The notes under the pieces: generated by a model | The model's input: the letters and a program-made list of their open reading frames with translations, nothing else | Told to the model about the DNA's origin: nothing | The model's database searches: none | Made by a program: the position numbers and the translations under genes | Shown here: positions 2,913 to 31,276 of the stretch, piece after piece | Numbering within the stretch: the first letter of the stretch is position 1 | Layout: the number at the start of each line of letters is the position of its first letter | From: a virus | Lineage: Duplodnaviria; Heunggongvirae; Uroviricota; Caudoviricetes | Length of the DNA stretch: 32,653 nucleotides | Virus record (IMG/VR): IMGVR_UViG_2541047739_000007 | Direction: 5' to 3' (one strand)

Positions 2913-2967
2913 GGTGATGCTGCCAACTTACTGATTTAGTGTATGATGGTGTTTTTGAGGTGCTCCA

Positions 2968-3243
2968 GTGGCTTCTGTTTCTATCAGCTGTCCCTCCTGT
3001 TCAGCTACTGACGGGGTGGTGCGTAACGGCAAAAGCACCGCCGGACATCAGCGCTATCTCTGCTCTCACTGCCGTAAAACATGGCAACTGCAGTTCACTT
3101 ACACCGCTTCTCAACCCGGTACGCACCAGAAAATCATTGATATGGCCATGAATGGCGTTGGATGCCGGGCAACAGCCCGCATTATGGGCGTTGGCCTCAA
3201 CACGATTTTACGTCACTTAAAAAACTCAGGCCGCAGTCGGTAA
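2968..3243 (+). CDS. insA: IS1 InsA (transposition inhibitor / N-terminal part of transposase)
   Basis: 91-aa [46 protein letters not shown]... recognised as IS1 InsA. Confidence 0.95.
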
Positions 3244-3665
3244 CCTCGCGCATACAGCCGGGCAGTGACGTCATCGTCTGCGCGGAAATGGACGAACAGT
3301 GGGGCTATGTCGGGGCTAAATCGCGCCAGCGCTGGCTGTTTTACGCGTATGACAGGCTCCGGAAGACGGTTGTTGCGCACGTATTCGGTGAACGCACTAT
3401 GGCGACGCTGGGGCGTCTTATGAGCCTGCTGTCACCCTTTGACGTGGTGATATGGATGACGGATGGCTGGCCGCTGTATGAATCCCGCCTGAAGGGAAAG
3501 CTGCACGTAATCAGCAAGCGATATACGCAGCGAATTGAGCGGCATAACCTGAATCTGAGGCAGCACCTGGCACGGCTGGGACGGAAGTCGCTGTCGTTCT
3601 CAAAATCGGTGGAGCTGCATGACAAAGTCATCGGGCATTATCTGAACATAAAACACTATCAATAA
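3162..3665 (+). CDS. insB: IS1 InsB reading frame (expressed as InsAB' transposase via -1 frameshift at A6C, 3219-3225)
   Basis: 167-aa frame ...[28 protein letters not shown]... recognised as IS1 InsB; TTAAAAAAC slippery run present. Confidence 0.95.
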
Positions 3666-3680
3666 GTTGGAGTCATTACC

Positions 3681-3689
3681 ACGGAACGC
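3681..3689. repeat. IS1 target-site duplication, right copy (ACGGAACGC)
   Basis: Identical to 2904..2912. Confidence 0.9.
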
Positions 3690-4379
3690 ATTTAAATTCA
3701 AATGCCACTGGCATAATGTCTTTGGTCTTCGCTTCGACAGACTCCATCAGGGAGCGTTTGCCGCTGAAGTCATTATCTTCAAAATCAGCGGTCTGGTTTG
3801 CTTCAATCGTGATTTTACGGACTGCCGCAGCCGCTTTTGTTGCCTGAATAGCGTCACCATTAGCATCAAAGCCCACAAGGTAGTCGGCCCAGTCTTCGAT
3901 CCATTCTGCCAGTGACTTCTGGGAGTTACGCTCGCCGTTAACAGACAACAGAGCAGAGAACGGTGCTGTCTTTTTCAGTTTGAGAGTGGCAGTGTTATCT
4001 GCGTGACCTGGCTCATCAATAGTACCCAGGTTAAGCACACTGACGGCACGCATATTATCGGCATCGATAAAGCAGCGGGTGCCTTCATCTGCAAGATCTT
4101 TAGAATAACGGGTAAAATCATCGATGCTGGCAGTGGAAAGTGCACCACGGAAACGGAAGCGATTTAAATTAAATTTTTCCAGATCATGAATGCGGAAATT
4201 CTCAGGCAATGCCACAGCATCGGCACCAATCTTACTGATAATTTCATTAACACCCTGAGCAGAAATAAGGGCATGGATTTGATTAATTGCGGTTGCGTCT
4301 AAGTTCTGAGACATAATAAGTCCTCACTATATAAAGATATTCAGTGATGAGATAAATAATCAGTTTATTACGAACGATA

Positions 4380-4791: not shown

Positions 4792-4878
4792 CAAAACAGA
4801 GAAGAACACCTGCGGTGGCAGCCGCCCGGATGGATTGGGTTATGAGCCCGTCGTCCGGTGATGCTCTTCTCTGTTTTG
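4792..4878. repeat. 14-bp perfect inverted repeat (CAAAACAGAGAAGA / TCTTCTCTGTTTTG) flanking a 59-nt GC-rich spacer
   Basis: Arms at 4792-4805 and 4865-4878; the spacer has further local stems (GCGG...CCGC); sits about 50 nt upstream of the 4742 start codon. Confidence 0.6.
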
Positions 4879-4888
4879 CAAAAAAGGA

Positions 4889-4925
4889 CGGTACCAGCCG
4901 GAAGCAAGGGTACAAACTGGTACCG
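4889..4925. promoter_or_regulatory. 9-bp perfect inverted repeat CGGTACCAG / CTGGTACCG with 19-nt loop containing GGTACAAA; candidate leftward operator (oL-like) or RNA hairpin
   Basis: Arms 4889-4897 and 4917-4925; shares the GGTACA core with the palindrome between cI and cro. Confidence 0.4.
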
Positions 4926-5144
4926 CCAGGACTACACACAGCATAAAGTTGTGGTGCCGGGTGCCTCCCGGTGCCTGGCGAAGGTTGCACACCAGGCGGG
5001 TGGGTATCCACAGAAGGTCGACTGTCAGCCTCAACCTTAACCCGCGTGCGCTGAGCCGCATTCACCACAACGCTAAGGATTCTCTCTGGTTGAAAATACT
5101 TAGCTGTTATGTGCCTGCTTTTAGCCACATCAGGCGAGGTGGAC

Positions 5145-5198
5145 CTGGTTATTCCCCAACAACAAGGATTCGGTTAATCTGGATATCCCCAACAACAA
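5145..5198. repeat. Direct repeat pair CTGG(T/A)TAT(T)CCCCAACAACAA
   Basis: TCCCCAACAACAA at 5153-5165 and 5186-5198, 33 bp apart, immediately upstream of the 5215/5238 start. Confidence 0.6.
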
Positions 5199-5214
5199 TA
5201 AGAGTATTCAATGT

Positions 5215-5728
5215 GATCGCTGAATTAACGGCAGCAATGACGGCTATTCGTGAAACAGCCCAGATTGCAAAACTAATGAACGAGGCAAAAACTCAAGCTG
5301 AAGTAAATGCGGCTATTGGTGAGCTGAACTCAAAGCTTGCGTCTATTCAGCGCGAATGCGTGTCTCTCGTTGAACTGGTGGGCTCTTATCAAGAAATAAA
5401 TGCTTCTCTCAAAGCTAAAATTGCAGAATTCGAAAACTTTGAGGCTCAGACGGAAGGCTATATCCTTAACCAACTTGAGTCGGGTACTTTTGTATACTCG
5501 AAGGAGGTAATCGTGAACGGTGGCAGCATAACCATGCATCTTTGCCCAAAATGTTTTGGACAAAAGATAGTATCGATACTTCAACCATTCCCGGTTAGCA
5601 AAGATGAGCTTTTTCATAAAAGCAGGTGCCTCCACTGTGAAAATAAGTTTCTGATGAATAAAAATCCGGATTACGTATCGCCTCCATCCATTGAGGAGTT
5701 GTCCAGAAAACTTAACGGCAATCTGTAG
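5215..5728 (+). CDS. Orphan hypothetical protein: predicted coiled-coil N-terminus and C-terminal CxxC...CxxC zinc-ribbon
   Basis: AT-rich ORF between the leftward early operon and cI, on the opposite strand to both; start uncertain (GTG 5215 or ATG 5238, MTAIRETAQIAKLMNEAK...); CPKCFGQ...17 aa...CLHCENK; own terminator downstream. Confidence 0.5.
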
Positions 5729-5767
5729 ATTGCTACTGTTGTGGATATCCAGATTGTTAAAGAGCTA

Positions 5768-5791
5768 AGCGTCCTGTAGGGCGCTTTTTTG
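5768..5791 (+). terminator. Intrinsic terminator after the orphan gene
   Basis: AGCGTCC-TGTA-GGGCGCT stem-loop followed by TTTTTT. Confidence 0.6.
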
Positions 5792-5904
5792 TTGCTAATG
5801 AATCATCCTAGACTTCATATGCTCCAGGCGGCTACTTCGTGGGCGTCCTGCCTGTTTGTTGTTTCTCTTGGGTACATTATGTATCCCAAAGGCACATTGT
5901 CAAG

Positions 5905-5929
5905 TATAAAAAAACCTGCCGAAGCAGGT
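5905..5929 (-). terminator. Intrinsic terminator of cI (minus strand)
   Basis: ACCTGC-CGAA-GCAGGT hairpin 14 nt after the cI stop, followed on the minus strand by a 7-U run. Confidence 0.7.
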
Positions 5930-5942
5930 TCATAAACATTGA

Positions 5943-6617
5943 TTAGGCTTTGATTTTGTATCTTCTTGGTTTTCCTGAGAAAATCACAGTTCCAATTATA
6001 GAGCAATTACCGTTGATCTTAATGTAAGGCTCAGGCCAGTTTGGGTTTAACGCTTTGAGATAACGCTGTGTCCCATCTTCTATCAACCTTTTGAAGGTGG
6101 TTTCACCTGTATCGTGCATCAATGCAATAACGTCGTCACCGTGGCAGGCAGGTACTTCAGGATCGACAAAAATCATGTCTCCCGGGCGGTACTCATCAAT
6201 CATTGAATCACCTATCACCCGCAAGATATAAGTCATTTCCCCACAGGGTACAGGGCAGGGATACGTTTCTGCTGTGCTCAAATCAACCTCAGAATATCCA
6301 ACTTCTTTCCATGCTCCGGCCTGTACCCATGATATGACAGGGACTAATGTGATTTGTTTATTAGTGATTGAAACATCAGGTTTTTTTGTGATGTTCGTTG
6401 TCTGGTGTTCTTGATCGAGCCATCCGACAGGCAGGTCGAAACATTTTTCGATGTGTCGTGCCATGCTGTCACCGATATTTTTAGTAGCACCATCTCCCAT
6501 AAACCTGCTGGTCTGGGTTGGCTCGCGATCAATCATAGTGGCAAAGGAAGAATTCCCGCCAACACCATCTCTCAGTTTTCTGGCGTTAGACCGCCGGATG
6601 TCATGGATTGTTTTCAT
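5943..6617 (-). CDS. cI: CI-like prophage repressor with C-terminal S24 (LexA-like) self-cleaving peptidase domain
   Basis: 224 aa; C-terminal GDSM serine motif and downstream TFKRL lysine (Ser-Lys dyad); divergent from a cro-like gene. Confidence 0.85.
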   Translation of the reverse strand: MKTIHDIRRSNARKLRDGVGGNSSFATMIDREPTQTSRFMGDGATKNIGDSMARHIEKCFDLPVGWLDQEHQTTNITKKPDVSITNKQITLVPVISWVQAGAWKEVGYSEVDLSTAETYPCPVPCGEMTYILRVIGDSMIDEYRPGDMIFVDPEVPACHGDDVIALMHDTGETTFKRLIEDGTQRYLKALNPNWPEPYIKINGNCSIIGTVIFSGKPRRYKIKA

Positions 6618-6685: not shown

Positions 6686-6707
6686 GTATACCGGAGGTAC
6701 ATATTGT

Positions 6708-7509: not shown

Positions 7510-7864
7510 ACAGTTTAACAACACACTACCGTCGCTCGCAACTGATTGCGCTTCCTGTACCGGGTGGAAAAGCGAAGGTGGAATATTGCTATGCAGTGAA
7601 TGTACCAGGTGACAGGGAAATTGTAACCCACAGCTTTGCAGAGTGGGCTGTGGGGGATTTCAACCGGCAGAAGGAGACAGTCCTTTGCGACAAGTTAACC
7701 GCTGGTTCAAAGATCACTACGGAGTGCCCGTCAGAGTCATTCGTTGGGAACCGGAAACACAACGGGTTATCTACCTCCGCGAAGGCTATGAGCATGAGTG
7801 CTTCAGTCCGCTCGAACAGTTTCGTCGTAAATTCAGGGAAATAGAGGTCGGTCATGAGCACTAA
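7506..7864 (+). CDS. Hypothetical protein, apparently frameshifted: frame-A N-terminus (7506..~7655) continues in frame B (7613..7864)
   Basis: Frame-A C-terminal tail is low-complexity while the overlapping frame-B ORF looks protein-like and ends overlapping the next gene start; a GGGGG run at 7652-7656 is the likely shift point. Confidence 0.4.
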
Positions 7865-8795
7865 ATTAACCGGCTATGTATGGGATGGTTGCGCAGCGTC
7901 AGGCATGAAATTATCCAGCGTGGCAATTATGGCCCGCCTGGCTGATTTCAGTAATGACGAAGGTGTGTGCTGGCCATCGATTGAAACCATTGCCCGCCAG
8001 ATTGGCGCGGGGATGAGTACAGTCAGAACGGCTATCGCACGGCTGGAAGCAGAAGGCTGGTTAACGCGTAAGGCGCGTCGCCAGGGTAACCGCAATGCGT
8101 CGAATGTTTATCAGCTTAACGTTGCGAAGCTTCAGGCTGCGGCATTTTCTCAACTGTCAGATTCTGACCCGTCAAAATCTGACGCATCAAAATCTGACCC
8201 GTCAAAATTTGATGCGTCGAAATCTGGCAAAAAAGCGGGTTTTCACCCGTCAGAATCTGGCGGGGATCCGTCAGTAAAATCAAAACATGATCCGTCAGAT
8301 AAAAAACCTTCTCGTCCGGACGCTTCGCAACCGGACACGCAGACGGCTGAACAGGATTTTTTAACTCGCCATCCTGATGCGGTTGTATTCAGCCCTAAAA
8401 AGCGCCAGTGGGGGACGCAGGATGATTTGACCTGCGCACAGTGGCTCTGGAAAAAAATCATCGCCCTGTACGAGCAGGCTGCCGAATGTGACGGCGAGGT
8501 GGTTCGTCCCAAAGAACCGAACTGGACAGCCTGGGCAAACGAAATTCGCCTGATGTGTGTGCAGGATGGTCGTACTCACAAACAAATCTGCGAGATGTAC
8601 AGCCGCGTCAGCCGCGATCCGTTCTGGTGCCGTAACGTGCTCAGCCCGTCGAAGCTGCGGGAAAAATGGGATGAGCTTTCCCTGCGCTTATCGCCGTCCG
8701 TAAGCACGTACACCGAAAAACGCGAAGACCCGTACTTCAAAGCCAGTTACGACAACGTGGACTACAGCCAGATCCCGGCAGGATTCAGGGGGTAA
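7854..8795 (+). CDS. Replication initiator (lambda O-like organisation: N-terminal winged-helix, acidic/serine linker, C-terminal domain)
   Basis: 313 aa; iteron array lies inside the linker-coding region (SDSDPSKSDASKSDPSKFDASKSGKK); position downstream of cro/CII-like genes. Confidence 0.7.
   Translation: MSTKLTGYVWDGCAASGMKLSSVAIMARLADFSNDEGVCWPSIETIARQIGAGMSTVRTAIARLEAEGWLTRKARRQGNRNASNVYQLNVAKLQAAAFSQLSDSDPSKSDASKSDPSKFDASKSGKKAGFHPSESGGDPSVKSKHDPSDKKPSRPDASQPDTQTAEQDFLTRHPDAVVFSPKKRQWGTQDDLTCAQWLWKKIIALYEQAAECDGEVVRPKEPNWTAWANEIRLMCVQDGRTHKQICEMYSRVSRDPFWCRNVLSPSKLREKWDELSLRLSPSVSTYTEKREDPYFKASYDNVDYSQIPAGFRG
8164..8223. repeat. Four tandem 15-bp iterons (TCTGACCCGTCAAAA family), candidate replication origin, with degenerate copies to about 8300
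   Basis: TCTGACCCGTCAAAA / TCTGACGCATCAAAA / TCTGACCCGTCAAAA / TTTGATGCGTCGAAA in register, then an A-rich tract and more CCGTCAG copies. Confidence 0.7.
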
Positions 8796-13218: not shown

Positions 13219-14301
13219 TTAGAACTGATAAACCAGACCTACAGCGACGATGTCGTCGGTATCAATACCAGCTGTTTTGGTAAACTTACTATCGTCAATT
13301 AAGTTGATTTTGTAATCAACAAAAGTGGACATGTTTTTATTAAAGTAGTAAGTAGCACCGACATCGACATACTTGACTAAGTCTCGGTCACCATGAACAC
13401 CAAGGTCTTTACCTTTTGACTGAAGGTAAGCAACAGATGGACGCAGACCGAAGTCAAACTGATATTGTGCTACTGCTTCAAAGTTTTGTGCTTTGTTTGC
13501 AATATGGTTATTACCAAAAACGGTCATATTCTGAGTTTCAGAATATGTGGTAGCCAGATAGATATTGTTCGCATCATATTTCAGGCCTGCAGCCCATACT
13601 TCCGCATTTTTGCCGGAGGCATTGAATTTGCTCTTACCATAGGCGACCTGACCGTCAGTGCGATCTGATTTAGCATAGGTTGCACCCACGCCGAATCCTT
13701 CATACTCATAAGTAGTGGAGAAACCGAAACCATCACCATTGGCTTCAGTTACGTCAGTGCGGTCATTTTTACCCTGATACTGAGCAGCAAAGTTCAGGCC
13801 ATCGACCAGACCAAAGAAGTCGTTGTTACGATAAGTTGCAACACCAGTAGTGCGACCAGTCATGAACACATCTGTTTGGGTCCAGGTATCACCACCGAAT
13901 TCTGGCAGGACGTCAGTCCACGCACCGATGTCGTATGCTACACCGTAGTTACGGCCGTAATCGATTGAGCCGTAATCACCAAATTTCAGGCCTGCAAATG
14001 CAAGACGGGTTTTGTCTTTGGAAGAACCTTGAGATTCAGCACGGTTGCCTTTGAATTCATATTCCCACTGACCGAAACCAGTCAGTTGATCGTTGATTTG
14101 GGTTTCACCTTTGAAGCCAAGACGGGCATAAGTAGTATCACCATCATCTGCATCATTAGAGGAGAAGTAGTGCTTGGCATTAACTTTCCCGTATAGATCC
14201 AGCTTGTTACTGTCTTTATTATAAATTTCAGCTGCCTGAGCAGACATCGCCATCAGTACTGATGCAGCTACAGCAGAAATTGCCACTGTTAATTTTTTCA
14301 T
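13219..14301 (-). CDS. nmpC: OmpC/OmpF-family outer-membrane porin (prophage-borne NmpC/Lc type)
   Basis: 360 aa; signal peptide [23 protein letters not shown]; porin C-terminus ...VGLVYQF; on the opposite strand between Q and the lysis genes. Confidence 0.9.
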
Positions 14302-18367: not shown

Positions 18368-18887
18368 ATGGAAGTCAACAAAAAGCAGCTGGCTGACATT
18401 TTCGGTGCGAGTATCCGTACCATTCAGAACTGGCAGGAACAGGGAATGCCCGTTCTGCGAGGCGGTGGCAAGGGTAATGAGGTGCTTTATGACTCTGCCG
18501 CCGTCATAAAATGGTATGCCGAAAGGGATGCTGAAATTGAGAACGAAAAGCTGCGCCGGGAGGTTGAAGAACTGCGGCAGGCCAGCGAGGCAGATCTCCA
18601 GCCAGGGACTATTGAGTACGAACGCCACCGACTTACGCGTGCGCAGGCCGACGCACAGGAACTGAAGAATGCCAGAGACTCCGCTGAAGTGGTGGAAACC
18701 GCATTCTGTACTTTCGTGTTGTCGCGGATCGCAGGTGAAATTGCCAGTATTCTCGACGGGATCCCCCTGTCGGTGCAGCGGCGTTTTCCGGAACTGGAAA
18801 ACCGACATGTTGATTTCCTGAAACGGGATATCATCAAAGCCATGAACAAAGCAGCCGCGCTGGATGAACTGATACCGGGGTTGCTGA

Positions 18888-18913
<26 letters not shown>
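18368..18913 (+). CDS. nu1: Terminase small subunit
   Basis: MEVNKKQLADIFGASIRTIQNWQEQGMPVLRGGGKGNEV... recognised as lambda Nu1. Confidence 0.95.
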
Positions 18914-28722: not shown

Positions 28723-31276
28723 ACCGGTAGGCGATCTGGTCGTTGATTTGAGTCTGGATGCGGCCAGATTTGACGAGCAGATGGCCAGAGTCAGGCGTCA
28801 TTTTTCCGGTACGGAAAGTGATGCGAAAAAAACAGCGGCAGTCGTTGAACAGTCGCTGAGCCGACAGGCGCTGGCTGCACAGAAAGCGGGGATTTCCGTC
28901 GGGCAGTATAAAGCCGCCATGCGTATGCTGCCTGCACAGTTCACCGACGTGGCCACGCAGCTTGCCGGCGGGCAAAGTCCGTGGCTGATCCTGCTGCAAC
29001 AGGGGGGGCAGGTGAAGGACTCCTTCGGCGGGATGATCCCCATGTTCAGGGGGCTTGCCGGTGCGATCACCCTGCCGATGGTGGGGGCCACCTCGCTGGC
29101 GGTGGCGACCGGTGCGCTGGCGTATGCCTGGTATCAGGGCAACTCAACCCTGTCCGATTTCAACAAAACGCTGGTCCTTTCCGGCAATCAGGCGGGACTG
29201 ACGGCAGATCGTATGCTGGTCCTGTCCAGAGCCGGGCAGGCGGCAGGGCTGACGTTTAACCAGACCAGCGAGTCACTGACGGCGCTGGTGAATGCCGGTG
29301 TGCGTGGTGAGGAGCAGTTTGAGGCGATCAGCCAGAGTGTGGCGCGTTTCTCCTCTGCATCCGGCGTGGAGGTGGACAAGGTCGCTGAAGCCTTCGGGAA
29401 GCTGACCACAGACCCGACGTCGGGACTGACAGCGATGGCACGCCAGTTCCATAACGTGACGGCGGAGCAGATTGCGTATGTTGCTCAGTTGCAGCGTTCC
29501 GGCGATGAAGCCGGGGCATTGCAGGCGGCGAACGAGGCCGCAACGAAAGGGTTTGATGACCAGACCCGCCGCCTGAAAGAGAACATGGGCACGCTGGAGA
29601 CCTGGGCAGACAGGACTGCGCGGGCATTCAAATCCATGTGGGATGCGGTGCTGGATATTGGTCGTCCTGATACCGCGCAGGAGATGCTGATTAAGGCAGA
29701 GGCTGCGTTTAAGAAAGCAGACGACATCTGGAATCTGCGCAAGGATGATTATTTTGTTAACGATGAAGCGCGGGCGCGTTACTGGGATGATCGTGAAAAG
29801 GCCCGTCTTGCGCTTGAAGCCGCCCGAAAGAAGGCTGAGCAGCAGACTCAACAGGACAAAAATGCGCAGCAGCAGAGCGATACCGAAGCGTCACGGCTGA
29901 AATATACCGAAGAGGCGCAGAAGGCTTACGAACGGCTGCAGACGCCGCTGGAGAAATATACCGCCCGTCAGGAAGAACTGAACAAGGCACTGAAAGACGG
30001 GAAAATCCTGCAGGCGGATTACAACACGCTGATGGCGGCGGCGAAAAAGGATTATGAAGCGACGCTGAAAAAGCCGAAACAGTCCGGCGTGAAGGTGTCT
30101 GCGGGCGATCGTCAGGAAGACAGTGCTCATGCTGCCCTGCTGACGCTTCAGGCAGAACTCCGGACGCTGGAGAAGCATGCCGGAGCAAATGAGAAAATCA
30201 GCCAGCAGCGCCGGGATTTGTGGAAGGCGGAGAGTCAGTTCGCGGTACTGGAGGAGGCGGCGCAACGTCGCCAGCTGTCTGCACAGGAGAAATCCCTGCT
30301 GGCGCATAAAGATGAGACGCTGGAGTACAAACGCCAGCTGGCTGCACTTGGCGACAAGGTTACGTATCAGGAGCGCCTGAACGCGCTGGCGCAGCAGGCG
30401 GATAAATTCGCACAGCAGCAACGGGCAAAACGGGCCGCCATTGATGCGAAAAGCCGGGGGCTGACTGACCGGCAGGCAGAACGGGAAGCCACGGAACAGC
30501 GCCTGAAGGAACAGTATGGCGATAATCCGCTGGCGCTGAATAACGTCATGTCAGAGCAGAAAAAGACCTGGGCGGCTGAAGACCAGCTTCGCGGGAACTG
30601 GATGGCAGGCCTGAAGTCCGGCTGGAGTGAGTGGGAAGAGAGCGCCACGGACAGTATGTCGCAGGTAAAAAGTGCAGCCACGCAGACCTTTGATGGTATT
30701 GCACAGAATATGGCGGCGATGCTGACCGGCAGTGAGCAGAACTGGCGCAGCTTCACCCGTTCCGTGCTGTCCATGATGACAGAAATTCTGCTTAAGCAGG
30801 CAATGGTGGGGATTGTCGGGAGTATCGGCAGCGCCATTGGCGGGGCTGTTGGTGGCGGCGCATCCGCGTCAGGCGGTACAGCCATTCAGGCCGCTGCGGC
30901 GAAATTCCATTTTGCAACCGGAGGATTTACGGGAACCGGCGGCAAATATGAGCCAGCGGGGATTGTTCACCGTGGTGAGTTTGTCTTCACGAAGGAGGCA
31001 ACCAGCCGGATTGGCGTGGGGAATCTTTACCGGCTGATGCGCGGCTATGCCACCGGCGGTTATGTCGGTACACCGGGCAGCATGGCAGACAGCCGGTCGC
31101 AGGCGTCCGGGACGTTTGAGCAGAATAACCATGTGGTGATTAACAACGACGGCACGAACGGGCAGATAGGTCCGGCTGCTCTGAAGGCGGTGTATGACAT
31201 GGCCCGCAAGGGTGCCCGTGATGAAATTCAGACACAGATGCGTGATGGTGGCCTGTTCTCCGGAGGTGGACGATGA
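28715..31276 (+). CDS. H: Tail tape-measure protein
   Basis: 853 aa MAEPVGDLVVDLSLDAARFDEQMARVRRHF..., long coiled-coil, lambda gpH. Confidence 0.95.
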   Translation: MAEPVGDLVVDLSLDAARFDEQMARVRRHFSGTESDAKKTAAVVEQSLSRQALAAQKAGISVGQYKAAMRMLPAQFTDVATQLAGGQSPWLILLQQGGQVKDSFGGMIPMFRGLAGAITLPMVGATSLAVATGALAYAWYQGNSTLSDFNKTLVLSGNQAGLTADRMLVLSRAGQAAGLTFNQTSESLTALVNAGVRGEEQFEAISQSVARFSSASGVEVDKVAEAFGKLTTDPTSGLTAMARQFHNVTAEQIAYVAQLQRSGDEAGALQAANEAATKGFDDQTRRLKENMGTLETWADRTARAFKSMWDAVLDIGRPDTAQEMLIKAEAAFKKADDIWNLRKDDYFVNDEARARYWDDREKARLALEAARKKAEQQTQQDKNAQQQSDTEASRLKYTEEAQKAYERLQTPLEKYTARQEELNKALKDGKILQADYNTLMAAAKKDYEATLKKPKQSGVKVSAGDRQEDSAHAALLTLQAELRTLEKHAGANEKISQQRRDLWKAESQFAVLEEAAQRRQLSAQEKSLLAHKDETLEYKRQLAALGDKVTYQERLNALAQQADKFAQQQRAKRAAIDAKSRGLTDRQAEREATEQRLKEQYGDNPLALNNVMSEQKKTWAAEDQLRGNWMAGLKSGWSEWEESATDSMSQVKSAATQTFDGIAQNMAAMLTGSEQNWRSFTRSVLSMMTEILLKQAMVGIVGSIGSAIGGAVGGGASASGGTAIQAAAAKFHFATGGFTGTGGKYEPAGIVHRGEFVFTKEATSRIGVGNLYRLMRGYATGGYVGTPGSMADSRSQASGTFEQNNHVVINNDGTNGQIGPAALKAVYDMARKGARDEIQTQMRDGGLFSGGGR

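Follow-up and report, generated by a model that had tools for sequence, protein, structure and literature searches.

The closest described relative of the gene discussed here is Rip1 (ring interacting pore 1) of phage HK446, which is named together with the small terminase of phage T6 in the title of PDB entry 9OOX, a structure released in February 2026 that contains 12 Rip1 chains. According to a conference report, 12 copies of Rip1 cap a set of 11 terminase subunits, in a pore-based defence that blocks incoming phage (PMC12908700), and a preprint groups Rip1 with defences that detect the small subunit of terminase (10.64898/2026.04.30.721860). That Rip1 forms a pore is itself a suggestion, taken from the name of the protein and from the conference report (PMC12908700), and the Rip1 mechanism as used below draws on the title of the PDB entry, this conference summary and one sentence of the preprint. 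A second point of reference is Tab of Pseudomonas phage JBD26, a single small protein expressed by the prophage from its own promoter on the opposite strand, which hits a component of virion assembly and ends in abortive infection (PMC10884400). The third is the SieB exclusion system, to which the antisense RNA sas is critical, acting as a switch of sieB translation (PMC12197685, PMC7067206); the sequence of P22 sas used here comes from an RNA-seq study of 2026 (PMC13397905).

Here, we describe a gene in a stretch of DNA of 32,653 nucleotides (the window), which is a prophage of lambda-like type, inserted beside intD at a tRNA-Arg gene. Its left arm, read leftward from the immunity region, holds a frameshifted small ORF, yfdP, yfdQ/DUF2303, yfdR, yfdS, yfdT and int; an IS1A element splits the yfdQ/DUF2303 gene, and the adjoining minus-strand ORF carries a frameshift in the annotation. 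In the e14-like immunity region, a ymfK-type cI on the minus strand (5943-6617), a YmfK/LexA-family repressor placed from the ORF list and from the annotation of an identical genome, is followed by ymfT/cro and ymfL, and the late genes are of lambda-like type (Nu1, A, portal, D, E and more). A phage record named PhiR49_1 (host E. coli ECOR13), for which a literature search returned no match, is nearly identical to the window without carrying IS1, and its copy of the rip1-like cassette is 98.8% identical.

The gene lies on the plus strand, within a frame that the ORF list gives as open from 4949 to 5728, and runs from a GTG start at 5213 to a TAG stop ending at 5728, encoding 171 aa; PGAP annotates the same interval as a hypothetical protein (WP_001571327.1) in a 100%-identical genome, that of E. 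coli isolate AF3. Homologues open with V/M-IAEL at the equivalent GTG, and in several homologous loci a stop codon is found 9 nt upstream of it. A Shine-Dalgarno (SD)-like AAGAG, read from the sequence at 5200-5204 on the plus strand, stands 8 nt before the GTG and is kept as AGAG or AUGAG in homologous loci. The original prediction, made from the letters of the window, of an intact plus-strand gene of about 165-170 aa thus agrees well with the annotated ORF, but the translation it proposed (5238..5728) begins too late: the start is GTG 5213, and the ATG in question, actually at 5237, is codon 9 (Met9) because translation begins at that GTG. Its description of the gene as AT-rich is right in direction, the GC content being 0.41-0.44 over the ORF, 0.52-0.57 immediately before it and about 0.5 for the whole, but the effect is modest. 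The full cassette (at least 80% coverage) is present in 686 of 5,426 complete E. coli genomes, O157:H7 strains included, and about one complete genome in eight carries it under the label 'hypothetical protein'; about 750 further complete genomes match the query partly, in the flanks or the leader alone among the matches listed.

Comparison with protein families gives a consistent answer from sequence and from structure. In PHROGs the window protein falls in phrog_1244 (E 9.6e-60), a family that also matches HK446 Rip1 (2e-53), HK620 HkaP (8e-51) and DMS3 gp25 (3e-61). A profile of 45 homologues aligns, over its positions 5-156, with residues 15-160 of the 164 in Rip1 chain 9oox_L (E 1.3e-19), so the homology with the characterised HK446 protein is full length, while BLASTP of the window protein alone against HK446 Rip1 gives 27% identity (E 2e-11), within a range of 23-28% across comparisons. 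Foldseek returned 9oox_L and 9oox_M as its sole significant matches (E 3e-7, probability 1.00, TM up to 0.71, 28% identity), placing the protein in the fold of the solved Rip1 chain, and tblastn found HK620 HkaP, HkaP of HK629/630, homologues in Klebsiella phages and gp25/orf25 of the Pseudomonas Casadabanvirus group. An exhaustive profile search (E <=0.001) puts the family at 2,605 representatives of clusters at 50% identity; of the 150 listed, nearly all are about 150-180 aa long. The window gene shows the same pattern, being a stand-alone prophage gene in the range of about 150-175 aa that runs in the opposite direction to the operon around it. The family phrog_1244 is thus a large single-domain family without a public name: Pfam, NCBIfam and PADLOC yielded sub-threshold coiled-coil noise alone for the window protein, and PADLOC 2023 has no model for Rip1/phrog_1244. 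HepS (PMC13043305), also checked, is unrelated.

The AlphaFold2 (AF2) model built on the 45-sequence alignment (mean pLDDT 90.3) has helices at residues 3-23 and 28-79, followed by a zinc-ribbon-like beta domain with four cysteines at 84-150. These cysteines, C111, C114, C139 and C142 (CPKC...CLHC), are invariant in the 45 homologues and stay so in a broader set with HK446 Rip1 among its members; Y95 shares their invariance in an alignment that takes in Rip1, HkaP and DMS3 gp25, and L123 of the SILQ motif very nearly does, so that the core residues of the family (CxxC...CxxC, the VY motif and SILQ) are all found in the window protein. The long heptad-like N-terminus and C-terminal CPKC...CLHC zinc-ribbon foreseen by the original prediction agree with the helices of the model and the invariant cysteines, and the homology search it proposed leads, by sequence profile and by Foldseek, to Rip1 (9OOX). 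No confident match to a known structural or regulatory phage protein, such as would have spoken against the anti-phage role it proposed, was obtained; the label of orphan gene, on the other hand, has to go, given 2,605 family representatives and an HkaP already noted as a putative superinfection exclusion protein. By these comparisons, the window gene is a divergent Rip1 relative: the defence family is known, and so is the sieB slot in which the gene sits.

It is probable, in our judgement, that 5213-5728 encodes a member of the Rip1/phrog_1244 family acting as a single-gene abortive-infection defence of the prophage, with the working set out below. The earlier suggestion of a candidate single-gene anti-phage moron in a sieB-type position accordingly gains support from three sides, namely the homology to Rip1, the slot, and upstream DNA homologous to that of P22 sieB. 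Identity of only 23-28% to Rip1 does mean that the trigger specificity, and even the class of trigger, may differ, and the alternative that survives best is that the protein has the Rip1 fold and a defence role but answers to another trigger (some other ring-shaped assembly of the phage, such as the portal, or another terminase class) or has an effector other than a pore, such as terminase sequestration that blocks packaging. The size and diversity of the family would allow for this, and sequence analysis of the 171-aa product found no transmembrane or hydrophobic segment, while the sources on Rip1 do no more than 'suggest' a pore; yet the homology is full length, the core residues are invariant, the significant structural matches go to the 9oox chains and nothing indicates a specific alternative target, and we regard this alternative as unlikely. 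The N-terminal helix is only moderately amphipathic (muH 0.44), and the combination of such a helix with the lack of a transmembrane segment is compatible with, though not proof of, a protein that is soluble as a monomer and gains membrane activity only on oligomerisation. The small terminase of the prophage itself (lambda Nu1-type, 18368-18913), searched against PDB sequences, gave no match to the TerS of 9OOX, which is consistent with a foreign (T6) trigger and is not proof of self-tolerance.

A coiled coil joined to a C4 zinc finger also has a superficial likeness to DksA/TraR, and the slot holds many unrelated small cargo genes without assigned function, so a lysogenic-conversion or regulatory zinc-finger protein, for example one that binds nucleic acid, was considered, the slot being one that could take any cargo. 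It was rejected as a DksA/TraR-like regulator, and we hold the wider proposal to be very improbable: neither Pfam nor NCBIfam gives a match to zf-dskA_traR or related models (E up to 1) or to a family of DNA-binding proteins, the significant sequence and structure matches go solely to Rip1, and the characterised occupants of the slot, SieB and Rip1, are exclusion or defence proteins. Least likely of all is that the prophage is defective and the gene a decaying remnant without function, as the IS1A insertion in yfdQ/DUF2303 and the frameshifted neighbouring ORF might indicate, since the rip1-like ORF keeps its full length and its collinearity with the homologues, is found at 98.8% identity in PhiR49_1 and at high coverage in 686 complete E. 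coli genomes, and has promoter-like, SD and terminator elements that are all intact and conserved.

The setting of the gene adds to the case for a Rip1-type defence. A terminator-like hairpin found by a terminator scan lies 3' of cI on the minus strand (5912-5931), where it would be the equivalent of tIMM, and beyond it comes a strong pL-like early-left promoter on the same strand (5876-5903; TTGACA-16-CATAAT, 11 of 12 consensus matches). An operator-like palindrome, GGTACATTATGTAT (at 5871; 5870-5886), overlaps this promoter and recurs with 12 of 14 positions matched as GGTACATATTGTAT at 6696, beside cro. Because the pL-like promoter (5903-5876) follows the cI terminator, the gene is predicted to lie antisense inside the pL transcript, and not, as the original prediction had it, between the early-left operon and cI. 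The sieB gene of P22, hkaP of HK620 and rip1 of HK446 are likewise antisense within their pL units: HK446 rip1 and HK620 hkaP are rightward genes in the leftward pL operon, adjoining N and the immunity region, and sieB of lambda and P22 holds the same position as these rip1-type genes. A survey of the slot, as originally proposed, does find homologues in the same immunity-adjacent place, in HK446 and HK620.

At its 3' end the gene has its own intrinsic terminator on the plus strand, AAGCGTCC-TGTA-GGGCGCTT followed by a T run (5767-5791, from scan and folding), a clean terminator within one nucleotide of the 5768-5791 given originally. Its stem (5767-5786) has 8 bp, 5 of them GC, closed by a tetraloop and followed by TTTTTGTTG; the hairpin appears in both the MFE and the centroid fold, and the terminator is kept in at least 12 homologous enterobacterial loci. 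On the minus strand, directly 3' of the same hairpin read in that direction, which lies some 105 nt into the predicted pL transcript, stands an exact rrn-type boxA core, GCUCUUUAACAA (5754-5765), a sequence that occurs once in the window against a chance expectation of 0.15; the boxA element is GCTCTTTAACAA, and homologous loci keep it as TTGTTAAAGAGC or TTTTTAAAGAGC. Nothing resembling an N gene is apparent in the interval from pL to the rip1-like gene, and we infer that boxA may help the untranslated antisense stretch of about 650 nt to escape Rho termination.

The region upstream of the gene is where the likeness to sieB is strongest. By blastn, a block of about 105 nt is homologous to the sieB upstream regions of lambda (34396-34491) and P22 (29652-29743), and in both location and expression signals it corresponds, by homology, to a sieB locus. 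The P22 annotation (NC_002371) gives 29690-29720 for the experimentally mapped sieB promoter, with transcription starting at 29727. Aligning the window with this annotated promoter puts a P_sieB-like promoter at 5149-5180 on the plus strand, with a predicted -10 TAATCT at 5175-5180 (TAAACT in P22) and a predicted RNA start at about 5185-5187, from which a short, CA-rich leader with the SD AAGAG would follow; the promoter is too weak to have been picked up by a consensus scan. In a set of 17 enterobacterial loci with protein identities of only 45-60%, conservation is higher over the ~105 nt 5' of the start and the ~50 nt 3' of the stop than over the ORF, and the opening 40 nt of the block (TGCCTG-N-CTTTTARCCACNTCAGGC-NNN-GTGG) recur almost unchanged upstream of HK620 hkaP and HK446 rip1.

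On the opposite strand, the same block would specify a cis-antisense RNA. P22 sas is the exact reverse complement of the block, extending from 2 bases past the sieB ATG to just beyond a GCCUG...CAGGC hairpin, and the alignment of 14 sequences that comprises the window minus strand and sas (alignment A3) has 31 invariant columns and a mean identity of 64%. From it a sas-like region is predicted at 5092-5217 on the minus strand, the reverse complement of promoter, leader, SD and start codon, ending in the conserved 3' hairpin. In this alignment the 5' end of P22 sas (UUCAU, the complement of the ATG and 2 further nt) falls at 5217, so that the region is taken to span GTG 5213 and the SD at 5200-5204. 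The consensus fold comprises a middle hairpin with five covarying pairs and the invariant 3' hairpin, GCCUG-N13-CAGGC (5113-5135, minus strand), which forms the 3' stem-loop of the sas-like region and the left boundary of the cassette; all five of its pairs are retained in 13-14 of the 14 sequences, and it occurs in at least 103 IMG/VR loci. The window sas-like sequence folds no better than shuffled controls (z 0.01), and Rfam has no family at its gathering threshold anywhere in the window and none over the sas-like block at E up to 5. The covarying stems had at first suggested a 5'-UTR element that sequesters the SD, a reading dropped because the block is homologous to the P22 sieB promoter and sas; the P22 sieB RNA starts downstream of most of the block. 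The ATG at 5237 falls just outside the predicted sas footprint and lacks an evident SD, and the Met9 column of the alignment holds Met in the majority of homologues and I, L, F or Y in some.

The ORF is also bracketed by a 19-nt inverted repeat, whose left arm, AATCTGGATATCCCCAACA (5176-5194), overlaps the predicted -10 and RNA start and whose right arm, TGTTGTGGATATCCAGATT (5737-5755), lies between the stop codon and the boxA and terminator, abutting boxA. The arms match at 18 of 19 positions (2 matches against 0.00 expected by chance), their core, GGATATCC, is itself palindromic, and both are conserved in many loci, with differences between the arms that are not compensated. Terminal repeats of a mobile cassette, or the ends of an invertible segment, were rejected as an explanation, the terminator and boxA lying outside the arms and the cassette boundary being at 5112, and a long-range RNA duplex is not supported, the arm differences in three loci (L012, L015 and L017) being uncompensated. 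The repeat could be a protein-binding site or, in the pL transcript, a long-range duplex.

Put together, these elements suggest the following working. In the lysogen, by homology with P22, the gene would be transcribed rightward from a weak, repressor-independent promoter of sieB type starting near 5186, its message translated from GTG 5213 and its transcript ended at the terminator at 5767-5791. The product, as the AF2 model and the conservation indicate, would be a soluble protein of 171 aa with N-terminal helices ahead of a Cys4 zinc-ribbon-like beta domain. Once the late genes of a sensitive phage are being expressed, the protein would, by homology, bind the ring-shaped small terminase and be templated into a ring of its own, as the 12 Rip1 subunits on the 11-mer TerS are in the HK446 Rip1/T6 complex; acting as a membrane pore, which is what has been suggested for Rip1, this ring would kill the cell before progeny are released. 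On induction, the derepressed pL (5903-5876) would drive transcription leftward through boxA and across the whole gene, and the pL-driven sas-like antisense (5217 to about 5095) would, by analogy with P22 sas and sieB, cover the SD and start codon and stop synthesis. Antisense shut-off of the rip1-like gene would in this way spare the prophage from aborting its own lytic growth.

The block that is proposed to exert this control is not confined to rip1-like genes. A pattern scan of IMG/VR found at least 121 matches to it, at least 103 of them with the extended conserved context, and the ORFs behind it form about 29 clusters among the matches listed, with at least 25 unrelated cargo genes. Among those listed matches, the Rip1 family accounts for 9-10 of 82 and SieB (PF14163) for 9 of 82, and most of the other cargo has no Pfam or PADLOC match. 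In one of the partly matching E. coli genomes, that of an ST131 strain, this position is taken by a gene of the ECs1072 family, with the left arm unchanged on one side and another repressor on the other. In two viral contigs the leader runs directly into sequence like the 3' flank of HK620 hkaP and no ORF is called, so that these look like empty slots. We tentatively propose a portable 'defence socket' of lambdoid phages in which the rip1-like gene is just one cargo. The make-up of such a socket may, again as a tentative reading, be a block of about 105 nt that combines a sieB-type promoter and leader with a sas-type antisense, with boxA and terminator as its flank in this phage group.

If so, the socket would give any cargo lysogen-specific expression and an automatic shut-off when the phage's own pL fires, antisense self-immunity would be a general, cargo-independent answer to prophage self-targeting, and the cargo families, at least 25 and mostly unannotated, would be a catalogue of candidate abortive-infection genes. 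The sieB promoter/sas block, more strongly conserved than the genes it controls, offers a sequence handle for mining prophage defence genes and suggests a way in which prophages escape killing themselves on induction; this conserved block, as a possible general socket, is a more novel lead than the rip1-like gene itself. For the gene, the Rip1 assignment replaces a 'hypothetical protein' with a testable function, small-terminase-triggered abortive infection, which bears on host range in phage therapy and on competition between prophages, and an allele about 27% identical to the solved Rip1 would lend itself to studies of how specificity for the trigger changes in evolution while the fold stays constant.

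Among known systems, Tab is 83 aa long and unrelated in sequence, targets the tape-measure protein and tail assembly, and obtains self-immunity from a protein, anti-Tab. Its slot provides a connection, as DMS3 carries its rip1 homologue between TerS and TerL, where JBD26 has the defence gene tab. That homologue, DMS3 gp25, with D3112 orf25 and MP38 ORF25 (Pseudomonas Casadabanvirus), belongs to the same PHROG at about 29% identity and is a reverse-strand moron, but this group lacks the sieB/sas block found at the window gene. HkaP of HK620 (AAK28864; also in HK629 and HK630) shares PHROG, size and slot with the window protein, lying between cIII and N on the opposite strand, and is about 29% identical to it; its GenBank note reads 'putative superinfection exclusion protein', and a literature search on hkaP found no experimental characterisation.

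In P22 SieB/Esc with sas, and in lambda sieB, the slot and orientation are the same, the promoter/leader block and the sas region are homologous, and the logic of an abortive-exclusion protein made by the lysogen would be shared, whereas the proteins are unrelated. SieB is a membrane protein of PF14163, a family that a SieB cargo taken from the same slot of another phage matches at E 3e-13 and that the window protein, which has no hydrophobic segment, does not match; nor is a conserved internal start of the Esc type evident in the window gene, unlike P22 sieB/Esc. The closest counterpart remains HK446 rip1. That gene abuts N, whereas no recognisable N lies between pL and the window gene, where an rrn-type boxA is found instead, and the second half of the leader has CCCCAACAACAA repeats here and CCCCTACAG repeats in HK446. 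The proteins (171 aa here; 164 aa for HK446 Rip1, gp37, YP_007111990) both belong to phrog_1244 and share an N-terminal helical region, a Cys4 beta domain, the same invariant tyrosine and four cysteines and a matching fold, and each is the product of a single gene on the opposite strand of the pL operon, beside the immunity region and behind a homologous upstream block.

Upstream of the rip1-like gene (5213-5728, plus strand) lies a sieB/sas-like block (5092-5217, minus strand), of which about 105 nt were found by sequence comparison to be homologous to the promoter and leader of P22/lambda sieB, with the opposite strand matching the P22 antisense RNA, sas. The same block is present in comparison loci L002, L021, L142 and L143 and, among the matches listed, in more than 100 IMG/VR loci (L022-L141), and it is better conserved than the gene that lies 3' of it; again among the matches listed, the cargo ORFs behind it in other phages fall into approximately 29 unrelated clusters. 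A search of the window against Rfam returned no family covering 5092-5217.

A further 750 or so complete E. coli genomes match the rip1-like cassette over part of its length only. One such arrangement, in E. coli ST131 strain 4993 (L145), has the left arm found in the window, with yfdQ and yfdP, adjoining a different repressor and a different cargo, a 144-aa phage-associated protein of the ECs1072 family (1608-2042 of that locus), which in sequence looks like a single site at which the cargo has been replaced. Behind the same sieB/sas-type leader, the IMG/VR locus L089 carries a shorter and far more diverged ORF of 136 aa, in which an N-terminal helix is followed by a coiled coil and then a CPNC...CSFC motif. 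Although this cargo was not picked up by the 45-sequence profile built from the rip1-like homologues, it matches phrog_1244, the family of the HK446 defence protein Rip1 (E 3e-22), and so, judging from these matches, the Rip1 family in the sieB-type slot is wider than its close homologues suggest.

The transcript predicted from the leftward early promoter, pL, which runs antisense across the rip1-like gene, carries an exact rrn-type boxA core, GCUCUUUAACAA (5754-5765, minus strand), about 105 nt past the pL start and immediately after a hairpin at 5767-5786. No N-like gene is evident near this boxA in the window, and one possible role for the element is to protect the long antisense stretch, which is not translated, from Rho, in either a factor-independent or a Nus-dependent way. 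The ORF is also flanked by the arms of a 19-nt inverted repeat (5176-5194 and 5737-5755; 18/19 identical), which has a palindromic core, GGATATCC, and is kept in related loci with no compensatory changes; its left arm is overlapped by a direct repeat, TCCCCAACAACAA, at 5153 and 5186. Immediately downstream of the sas-like hairpin (5113-5135) on the pL transcript is a full-length, sub-threshold match to the sRNA STnc100 (4878-5101, minus strand; Rfam RF02076, E 6e-7, scoring 40.3 bits where the gathering threshold is 47). As this match overlaps an ORF annotated by PGAP as a frameshifted hypothetical protein, the locus may encode an sRNA instead of a broken gene.

Elsewhere in the prophage, an OmpC/NmpC-like porin gene of 360 aa (13219-14301, minus strand), lying on the strand opposite to its neighbours, with the late-regulatory region on one side and the lysis genes on the other, is probably another moron. 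Within an ORF for a replication-initiator-like protein (7854-8795), the DNA repeats matching a short peptide repeat, SDPSKSDASKSDPSKFDASKS (8150-8290), could be origin iterons. The early-left gene yfdQ/DUF2303 is cut into two pseudogene fragments by IS1A (~2940-3706; insA/insB, with a programmed frameshift), whereas it is intact in the related phage PhiR49_1.

Outside the lambda-like phages, the placement of gp25 in Pseudomonas phage DMS3 (3968-4495 of L003) is striking, given that the characterised member of the family senses the small terminase: gp25 and its relatives, D3112 orf25 and MP38 ORF25, occupy the same TerS-TerL slot as the JBD26 defence gene tab.
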